This document shows positions 48,901 through 51,900 of a stretch of DNA of 64,000 bases, piece after piece (positions within the stretch are counted from its first letter, which is position 1; the number at the start of each line of letters is the position of its first letter). Position numbers: made by a program. The stretch is taken from NCBI RefSeq assembly GCF_057098645.1, contig NZ_CM169472.1; one strand, given 5' to 3'.

Positions 48901-51900
48901 TGCATCAGGGTCGGTCGTGGTTGGGCTATCCGGCTCCGGCGTCAATGCAAGCGCCTGTACAATACCCGTCGCCGCCAACCCTATCAGACCTGTAGCAACA
49001 GTCCCCAACGCCAACCAAAGTTTAGGATCTGAACGAAGGCTGGAAGTTGAGGTTGAAGTTGAGGTTGAGGTCTGAGTTTCTGTGGTGTTTTCCGCACCGC
49101 TATTTGACTCCCTCAACTCCCCAGCACCTTTGGACTCCCCGGTCCCTTTGGGCTCTAACAGCTCCAGTATCCTTTGGCGGGCTTCCGTGATATCTGAAGC
49201 AACGGTGACCATAGCATGCCCAGCACCACCACGGCCTCCAGTAAATACAAATTTGTCTTTACCTTCAGGATCAATGGACTGCAAGCGAGCGTACTCTTGA
49301 TCACTTAAAACAACAGAGGTCTCAACACCATTCCTCTGACCGACAGCAATATGTTTACCATCTTCCTGAGTTTCAACTCGAAATACCGAAGAGCCAATCT
49401 GCCTGTTAAGAGTATCGAGCGGACCATGATCATGAAGAACTTCAAATCCATCATTCAGTGTTATCTCAGACGCCGCCAGGCGCATCGGATTTACAGGAAG
49501 TCCAGGAACATCACTGGCACGATTGTCGCCAGAATCAGCCATAGAATTCCTTACAGGCGTAAATAGCGCACGAGATCCCAACGGCCCCGTAGAGTTAATG
49601 AGCTGACCACGCCCCCCTGCACCGTCGGTTTGTGAAGGTAATGGAGGTGCAGGAGGAATTGAATTATTCACATTGGGATTATGACCAAGATTACCAATAG
49701 GCATAAATATCTCCTTTTTATTTTATGTAAATAGATAACAATCCTTTATTTTGCTATTACATAATAATGTATGGTATACAGCACGTAGTCGATAAACGGC
49801 TGAACATGACATCGACCAAATAAATCACAATCTGATTTTTGATGCAAGAAAATAATGTGCTAAAAACACACATCGGGTCACAAAATAAAAATAATTATAT
49901 TATATAAAAGTAAACACCACGTGAAATCTTAATAAAACATTTCATAAATAAAATTGCAGCAAACATTCACTTATATTAAAAAACACAGCCAAAGAAAACC
50001 AATTAAGCAAACTATAAATCTTAATTAATAATAAAGTTTATTAAGTTTCTTTATCGCGTTTTTTCTTACATCAACAAAGGCCATGCTATACACCAGGAAG
50101 CTTAATTTATACCTGACAAGGTTATCCCTACAATCGGGTATCCTGTACATGCTCTAAAATCGCATTCTGAGTAATCGCTTTTATCTCACTGACTTTGAAG
50201 CCGCTAAAGTTGCGTTCAAATATTTCTTGTGAGACTTGTTCTATCATCTTCGTCTGGGTGTTAAAACGTGTTATTGGATCCACTCTTTTGCCGCACTGCT
50301 CATCAACTTTCTGATTAAAGTATTTATTGGACTGCAAGAAGTGACCAATTGATGATTGTGCCCCGTTCATATCAAGAGGTTGCTGTAACGCATTTTCAAC
50401 AGCTCTAAAAATGTGACCTTTAGTCTCCTTACTAATGACCGAATTATTACTCCTGCAATAGTCATCCAGAGTTCTATTTACTGTTCTGGATATATAAGTC
50501 GTCTGCTCCTGCTGGAACCATTGTTGGGTATCGCCATTACGAGTTTGTTTGGCTACAGCCTGCAGGAGTTGGTTAGTCAGTTTGCCATGATTAATCACAA
50601 AGTTCGACTGCACGGGCATGAACCTCATACCCGTGGCTCCCGTACCCGCTTGCATTGCAGCTCTGGTAACCGCAGGTCTAAGCGTCTGTGCAGTCGCCTG
50701 AACTAACGATCTGCCTGCCATTGTCATTGGACTAAACATACCATAAACCTTTATAAATTATATTTCGACAGTAAAACAATTGCTTCCCATTAAAAAATAA
50801 CTTTAAAGAATAATTATCTTGTATTTATATTTGAATTATCCTCCGGCCTTATCTACAGGTAGTTGCACTACATTTATCATATGCTATCATGAATATGCAA
50901 CACTATTCCCGTAATCTTATATCTACGCCTTATTATTTGTATCAGAACTCTCGGATTAATTACGTTTGAGTATATCAACATGAAAAGAATGGCAGGACTA
51001 CAATATGAATGAGAAATTTCGCACAGACCTTGCACATACGTTTGGGATAGCTCTTGAAGAGCAAACTGACGTGCTCTCTTTCCACGATAACGATGGCCAT
51101 GAATGGATACTGGAGTGTGCATCTCAATCTGAAATTCTGTTTTTTTATTGTTATTTATTGAATAGCGAATCAATACAGATTAATTCAATACTTGAAATGA
51201 ATAGCAATCGAGAACTGCTCGGTATGTTTTTCCTGTCATTAAAAGATGACAACATTCTTTTAAATATTGCATTTCCTGCAGATAAAATTGATATTACAGA
51301 GTTTGCTAATTTAATGGAAAATGGTTATCTATTAAAGAATGAGGTAATTAGATCCTTGTCTTCCAGACCTACAGATTTTTTACCTTGATAATTTCTGCGC
51401 TGGATGGGATCATCCATTCCGTTTAACATACTCTTCATCACAGGGACCTCTGATTTCTGGCCGCTAACGTCTCTGAAGATTCAGCCTGTATTATCTAAAA
51501 GCAATGTAATATCAGTTAAAAAGCGGAAAAACTCCAGAATTATAACTATTCTGGAGTTAAGTCAGGAAGAAAACTCAAATGCTAATCATAATACGCTATA
51601 AGAGGAAGCTCTTGTTGCTATAGCCCTATTATCAAGACGTTCGGTAGACTGTACACGACGTAACAAAGAAGATAATCCTCTTTCAGCTAAGATCCCCTCC
51701 AGGGGAGTACGAGGAAACCAGGTTGAAGAAAGTGGAGTTATATGTCTCTCATTTAATTTTCTTTCCAAAGCCTTAGTCACACCGCCAGAAAACACGCTAA
51801 ATAGCGTTGAGAAACATCCATTTTCCGGTGTTATTCTTTGTACTTTGTACACATAATCATCTTTTGGGCCATCTTTAATAAAGTGAACAGCATAGTCTTT

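Follow-up and report, generated by a model that had tools for sequence, protein, structure and literature searches.

AT-rich intergenic regions flanking map in an O145/O157-type LEE: promoters, probable silencing DNA and predicted curvature

We analyzed the two long intergenic regions that flank the map gene in the LEE (locus of enterocyte effacement) of a Shiga-toxin-type Escherichia coli, using a 64,000-nucleotide stretch of contig NZ_CM169472.1 (RefSeq assembly GCF_057098645.1), hereinafter the window. The first intergenic region (IGR1; 49705-50127, 423 bp, 27.2% GC), which is the regulatory region of LEE5 on the minus strand, extends from the map stop codon to the ATG of tir, and the second (IGR2; 50740-51004, 265 bp, 29.4% GC) lies between the divergent start codons of map and cesF. 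Open reading frames (ORFs) and the RefSeq annotation agree that these positions, already given in the initial annotation of this DNA, are the exact intergenic limits. The two regions are very probably the cis-regulatory DNA already known for three LEE transcription units. Attaching-and-effacing lesions are produced by intimin together with its receptor Tir, both encoded in LEE5, and the LEE5 promoter is a standard model of silencing by H-NS and anti-silencing by Ler. The regulation of LEE5 and of map/cesF by these two proteins is already known and belongs to the textbooks, so that no new biology is presented here; the gain is the placement of the promoters and their probable transcription starts on coordinates for the O145/O157-type LEE. 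The exact hexamers, the cesF promoter and the sameness of protein binding in this strain are what we infer.

Promoters of tir, map and cesF

The start of the tir transcript can be placed by published primer extension in the O157:H7 strain EDL933, where the primer LEE5PE gave a tir product of "around 142 nt" (PMC3539938). This primer matches the window exactly at 49671-49690, and a cDNA of ~142 nt primed at 49671 therefore puts the 5' end of the tir mRNA at 49812 on the minus strand (49671+141; approximate to +/- 1-2 nt). Position 49812 is an A located 7 nt past an extended -10 element, TGaTTTATT (49819-49827, minus strand; presumed hexamer TTTATT at 49824-49819), which is separated by a 17-nt spacer from a presumed -35 hexamer TTGCAT (49842-49847, minus strand; approximately -35 in the numbering of enteropathogenic E. 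coli, EPEC). The tir-strand promoter sequence is cattattttcTTGCATcaaaaatcagattgTGaTTTATTtggtcgAtg. An independent placement comes from EPEC, for which the primers of Leh et al. 2017 (Table S2) define the LEE5 +1 (PMC5550750): mapped on strain E2348/69, three primers are concordant, the tir ATG stands at +86, and +1 lies 8 nt past the same TTTATT. The EPEC and window starts thus agree within 1 nt relative to the -10 element. EPEC1, an engineered strain that lacks map and espH, was used for the primer mapping only.

An alignment of eight lineages (O145, O157, fS25a, O26, O103, O111:H8, E110019 and E2348/69) points to the same place. At LEE5, hardly any change is seen between about -45 and -1, a block with 92-98% identity across the gamma, beta and alpha LEE types; the -35 hexamer is identical in all eight lineages, and the extended -10 element belongs to the invariant block. 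The remainder of IGR1 is 51-82% identical and contains many indels. The 5' untranslated region (UTR) of tir that results from the 49812 start is ~107 nt long (49705-49811, minus strand) and includes a Shine-Dalgarno sequence, AAGGAG, at 49711-49716. Two GGA motifs, 30 nt apart, are present in this leader (49742-49744 and 49712-49714, minus strand), one in AUAAAGGAU and the other in the Shine-Dalgarno segment AAAAGGAG; both are invariant in 8/8 lineages in a leader that is otherwise variable, and their spacing would suit a CsrA dimer.

For map, the EDL933 primer mapPE gave a cDNA of ~135 nt (PMC3539938). The primer maps to 50729-50749 with two internal mismatches, and a product of this length primed at 50729 therefore gives a start at about 50863 (50729+134), that is, at 50863-50864 on the minus strand, approximate to +/- 1-2 nt. 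This start lies 7-8 nt past an extended -10 element, TGaTAAATG (50871-50879, minus strand; TAAATG at 50876-50871), which sits in a conserved block 18 nt from a presumed -35 hexamer, TTGCAT (50895-50900, minus strand), that is invariant in the eight lineages; an alternative -10 reading, ATAAAT (50872-50877, minus strand), has a 17-nt spacer. The map-strand promoter sequence is gTTGCATattcatgatagcataTGaTAAATGtagtgcaAct. The initial annotation had presumed that the two gaps hold the LEE5 (tir) and map promoters, and this is borne out at both genes, where the promoter elements stand at the spacing demanded by the EDL933 primer-extension products.

The initial annotation overlooked that IGR2 must also carry the promoter of the divergent cesF gene. 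The best candidate, TTGCAC (50863-50868), 16 nt and TGcTATCAT (-10 hexamer at 50885-50890), occupies 50863-50890 on the plus strand, has the top plus-strand position weight matrix (PWM) score in the scanned interval 49650-51060, and is invariant in all its elements in the eight lineages. In an alternative given by a stricter promoter scan, TCTACA-17-TATCAT (50852-50880, plus strand), the -10 becomes TATCAC in O26 and O103. Given the invariance of the former elements and the altered -10 of the latter, TTGCAC-16-TGcTATCAT is proposed for cesF, with a predicted start at about 50895-50897. The candidate cesF promoter and the map promoter lie on opposite strands of a conserved core block (50861-50908), which is the best-kept part of IGR2, with 92-94% identity across the gamma, beta and alpha LEE and 66-78% in its flanks. 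Within this core, 50863-50900 is an invariant, quasi-symmetric 38-bp block, TTGCAC...CATATG...ATGCAA. Should the cesF assignment hold, the promoters of map and cesF would overlap fully back to back, with each -35 element over the start of the other, and the two genes may be fired from one 38-bp block, competing for a single RNA polymerase site. The 3' UTR of cesF (51389-51585), which is convergent with espH, is the reported place of sRNA350, an Hfq-dependent LEE activator; if so, the cesF promoter in IGR2 would also drive this regulator.

AT-rich DNA, H-NS and Ler, and predicted DNA shape

The initial annotation described both gaps as extremely AT-rich, and this description holds beyond chance: the whole window has 46.6% GC, and a GC content as low as that of IGR1 is reached by just 0.25% of the 423-bp stretches in the 64 kb, one as low as that of IGR2 by 2.3% of the 265-bp stretches. 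In IGR1, A/T-only 10-mers occur at 13x the window density and TpA steps at 2x, and a pure A/T run of 28 bp lies there, at 49882-49909. The site that Ler prefers, AATT, shows no enrichment in either gap over the dinucleotide shuffles of that gap, and a repeat search of this DNA returned only short, low-identity A/T matches.

At EPEC LEE5, Ler reportedly protects the region from -190 to -70 (Haack 2003, as cited in PMC6094958). Transferred through the alignment, the DNase I footprint corresponds to approximately 49879-50051 in the window, a stretch that includes the 49882-49909 A/T run and is ~50 bp longer than its EPEC counterpart. By analogy with EPEC, this stretch would be the upstream silencing/anti-silencing region. 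It is only 51-66% identical between lineages and contains many indels, and its GC content is 26-30% in every lineage. That AT content is kept and sequence is not fits indirect readout of the minor groove rather than a sequence- or curvature-specific site; such recognition of a narrow AT minor groove by Ler and H-NS has been shown structurally for Ler (PMC3219716). Between -80 and +104 of EPEC LEE5, the areas protected by H-NS and by Ler are similar, with common nucleation sites, and H-NS sites have been predicted at -195/-190, -160/-150, -123/-105, +10/+20, +75/+85 and +250/+270; site mutations at -110, +15 and +254 weaken both silencing and anti-silencing, and the construct PLEE5-3M carries the mutated '+10 to +20' site (PMC5550750). 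Near the equivalent of this last site, at about +15 to +24, the window contains TCGATAAACG (49789-49798, plus strand), which agrees with the H-NS nucleation consensus at 8/10 positions. According to the summary of Shin 2012 in PMC5040716, the proposal is that H-NS, starting at an upstream site, extends to the promoter and contacts RNA polymerase at that place. In array data, activation by Ler amounts to 22- to 79-fold for tir, map and cesF in EPEC, and to 12-fold for map and 4-fold for tir in enterohaemorrhagic E. coli (EHEC) (PMC3891560).

The structural side of the initial annotation, namely that the gaps carry phased A/T tracts of curved DNA, fared differently. The A/T tracts (TpA-free, at least 4 bp) number 26 in IGR1 and 13 in IGR2, to be compared with 24.8 +/- 2.6 and 11.4 +/- 1.9 in dinucleotide shuffles; in the 10-11.25 bp band, the power of AA/TT is no higher than in the shuffles (the fraction equal to or above the observed value is 0.59 for IGR1 and 0.18 for IGR2); Rayleigh tests on tract centres detect no significant phase preference in IGR1 or IGR2; and local phasing in 63-bp windows does not exceed the shuffles either. 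Phasing in both gaps is therefore within shuffle expectation by periodogram, by Rayleigh test and in the local windows. Curvature was computed as a wedge-model trajectory with the Bolshoy AA-wedge parameters, which reproduced the control contrast of curved (A4T4)n and straight (T4A4)n, and the De Santis and Calladine-Drew sets were also run; the values are model predictions. With the Bolshoy set, the whole window averages 5.7 deg/turn, its 95th percentile being 11.7; IGR1 averages 5.0 deg/turn and reaches at most 10.6 (92nd percentile), and IGR2 averages 6.3 deg/turn and shows one peak, of 14.3 deg/turn, on the start codon of map (50741; 98.5th percentile). In predicted curvature IGR2 is average, and IGR1 comes out straighter than ~98-99% of the dinucleotide shuffles of its sequence. 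For IGR1, the De Santis and Calladine-Drew models deviate in the same direction (z -1.4 to -1.9), the mean curvature of IGR1 is below the shuffle mean in 7/7 LEE lineages tested, and among 151 tiles of the window (z mean -0.16, sd 0.97) the IGR1 value of -2.26 is in the lowest 0.7%.

These results bear on the possibility that phased A/T tracts confer an intrinsic curvature and that this curvature is what H-NS and Ler recognize. Such a reading can appeal to the frequent description of curved AT-rich DNA as the preference of H-NS (PMC5040716), to the AT-richness of both gaps and to the local peak at 50741. Nevertheless, the 10-11 bp periodicity that it calls for is absent from the whole gaps and from the 63-bp windows, and both the mean and the maximum predicted curvature are at or below those of composition-matched shuffles under three wedge models and in all seven lineages, with IGR1 being among the least curved tiles of the window relative to its own shuffles, by values that are model predictions. 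We consider recognition through curvature very improbable, and the description of the gaps as phased-tract, curved DNA, which is not supported by the model predictions, should be dropped. As regards the silencing sites that the gaps were presumed to hold, what stands is that IGR1 contains a stretch equivalent to the mapped Ler/H-NS region; what falls is phased, curved tracts as the basis of those sites. More generally, this corrects a common assumption, in that AT-rich silencing regions need not be curved, phased-A-tract DNA.

The predicted straightness of IGR1 is common to the alpha, beta and gamma LEE despite ~50% sequence divergence, and one could imagine that the AT-rich DNA upstream of tir has been selected for straightness, with its bends cancelling. 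If so, straight DNA upstream of tir could favour linear H-NS/Ler filaments over bridged complexes. Taken jointly with the proposal that map and cesF are fired from the single block 50863-50900, this is a doubtful conjecture.

Under the interpretation that we prefer, in which the gaps are cis-regulatory regions, IGR1 would contain a sigma-70 LEE5 promoter, TTGCAT-17-TGaTTTATT, from which transcription starting at ~49812 would run through the ~107-nt leader into tir-cesT-eae. H-NS would nucleate on the ~280 bp of very AT-rich, TpA-rich DNA upstream, spread to the LEE5 promoter and silence it. Ler, the H-NS paralogue encoded by LEE1, would bind the same DNA with higher affinity and remodel or displace the H-NS complex, so that LEE5 transcription would track the level of Ler. 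IGR2 would contain the map promoter, TTGCAT-18-TGaTAAATG, starting at ~50863, and the probable cesF promoter on the opposite strand of the ~40-bp block, with AT-rich leaders on both sides of this conserved block. Recognition by Ler and H-NS would depend on base composition and minor-groove shape, not on intrinsic curvature.

Weighing the regulatory interpretation

Several observations count against this interpretation. A strict promoter scan found 5 promoter-like sites, compared with a shuffle mean of 7.3, and none of them is on the minus strand, the strand of tir and map. The LEE5 and map promoters are poor matches to the consensus, ranking 26 and 71, respectively, among the 6860 candidate alignments in the PWM scan of 49650-51060. 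A search for a published cesF start site found none, and the start given above is a prediction. The 8/10 matches to the H-NS consensus (tCGATAAATT-like) number 90 in the window, which is the chance level (85 expected). The footprints come from EPEC, whose upstream region is ~54% identical to that of the window and ~100 bp shorter, and the binding of Ler and H-NS, as well as the dependence on Ler, would hold for this O145-type strain by homology with EPEC and EHEC.

The first two of these points concern promoter prediction, which the initial annotation had suggested as a check. The strict scan misses the LEE5 promoter because it requires an A at position 2 of the -10 element, and the weakness of the consensus matches at LEE5 and map is plausible if these promoters depend on relief of silencing. 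The check thus came out negative in the strict scan, with no site on the tir/map strand, and positive by way of conservation and the published primer extension. Consensus-based prediction alone would miss both real promoters; conservation and primer-extension data recover them. For a composite pattern, TTGCAY-N13-15-TGNT, the window shows no enrichment (5 occurrences against 6.6 expected); 3/5 matches lie within 49705-51004, which is not evidence, since the pattern was derived from those very sites.

A different account of the length of IGR1 would be that it also encodes an unannotated small RNA, a small protein or a map terminator. In its favour, 423 bp is long for a gap between genes on the same strand, a 41-codon ORF (50025-50150, minus strand) overlaps the map stop codon, and there are further promoter-like sites: TTCACG-17-TAATAT on the minus strand (49897-49925; predicted start ~49890), which lies in the Ler-footprint-equivalent stretch and is kept in the gamma and beta types and deleted in alpha, and TTTATA-17-TACAAT on the plus strand (50106-50134), antisense into the 3' end of map. 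However, IGR1 has no Rfam match, and scanning 47-53 kb against Rfam at E<=1 returned only a chance match to isrF, outside the gaps; no terminator-like hairpin for map is found on the minus strand of IGR1; and the folding of the map 3' flank (z -0.20) and of the tir leader (z -0.22) is no better than that of shuffles. Moreover, the central part of IGR1 is poorly conserved, and stretches of 36 and 18 alignment columns are absent from the alpha lineage, which argues against a conserved RNA or peptide in IGR1, and the primer-extension product of ~142 nt fits only the 49812 start. We therefore give little credence to such additional content. The extra promoter-like sites are probably false matches in AT-rich sequence, of a type that H-NS is thought to silence, and the simplest view of these sites, and of the 41-codon ORF at the map stop, is that they arise by chance in AT-rich DNA.

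A further reading would make the AT-richness a mere mutational and compositional mark of horizontally acquired non-coding DNA, with no regulatory role of its own. In its favour, the LEE portion of the window is AT-rich throughout, other LEE gaps, such as the grlR-etgA gap, are equally so, and the sequence upstream of tir drifts fast between lineages. This reading is nevertheless hardly credible: the lineages differ by indels and by 35-50% of their sequence and yet all keep a GC content of 26-30%, and mutations of AT-rich sites in EPEC PLEE5 weaken H-NS silencing and Ler anti-silencing alike (PMC5550750).

Locus context and comparison with known systems

The order of genes along the window is eae-cesT-tir-map-cesF-espH-escQ: eae (intimin; 44571-47393, minus strand), cesT (47435-47905, minus), tir (48040-49704, minus), map (50128-50739, minus), cesF (51005-51388, plus), espH (51586-52092, minus) and sepQ/escQ (52123-53040, minus). 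All were located as ORFs, and tir, map and cesF are placed also by the RefSeq annotation, which has them at matching places in a record that is 100% identical over the region. In the NCBIfam models, the Tir equivalog is matched over its full length (1050 bits), and Map matches the WxxxE-effector model. The segment 49300-51500 has 100% identity with its counterpart in E. coli O145 RM9872 and 99.7-99.8% identity with those in O157:H7 strains, and is present in 696/5426 complete E. coli genomes, in a single copy and on the chromosome in all of them. Outside this identity, tir has 554 codons in the window versus 560 in RM9872 (annotated as 1683 bp), and the coordinates of cesT are shifted by 18 bp; therefore, an 18-bp indel inside tir separates the window from RM9872, and this indel is probably located in one of the Ser/Thr repeat tracts of tir.

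The only other stretch of the window to equal IGR1 in AT-richness is 62710-62886, within the low-GC interval 62717-63234. It is the gap between two divergent genes, grlR (62335-62709, minus strand) and an ORF for an etgA-like lytic transglycosylase (62887-63363, plus strand), and is likewise a known LEE region under the control of Ler and H-NS.

Among the closest known systems is the LEE of EHEC O157:H7 EDL933 and Sakai (OI-148), which is 99.7-99.8% identical, has gaps of equal length (423 and 265 bp) and differs from the window by three single bases in the gaps, all outside the core promoters; the primer-extension data used here are those of EDL933. The divergent pair in IGR2 invites a comparison with bidirectional promoters. 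In the class of divergent promoters reportedly described by Warman et al. in 2021, the -10 elements overlap, with a typical distance of 18 bp between the starts. The map promoter and the candidate cesF promoter likewise share a conserved block, of ~40 bp, on opposite strands, whereas their -10 elements lie side by side without overlap and their predicted starts are ~33 bp apart, the cesF start being only a prediction.

PLEE5 of EPEC E2348/69 occupies the same position, between map and tir, and from -40 to +1 its core promoter is 92% identical to that of the window and has TTGCAT and TGaTTTATT in common with it, in a similarly AT-rich context upstream and downstream; the EPEC '+10 to +20' H-NS site falls near TCGATAAACG of the window. 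The two regions differ in the length of the gap (423 bp in the window versus 326 bp in EPEC), of the leader (~107 nt versus 85 nt) and of the footprint-equivalent stretch (~173 bp versus 121 bp, ~54% identical). Finally, at the LEE2/LEE3, grlRA, lpf1 and nleA promoters, AT-rich extended binding regions likewise flank a weak sigma-70 promoter, and Ler and H-NS compete for the DNA by indirect readout of the minor groove (PMC3219716, PMC5550750), the sequences themselves being different. In contrast to those promoters, at LEE5 the proposal outlined in PMC5040716 is that H-NS acts from a distal upstream site, contacting RNA polymerase.

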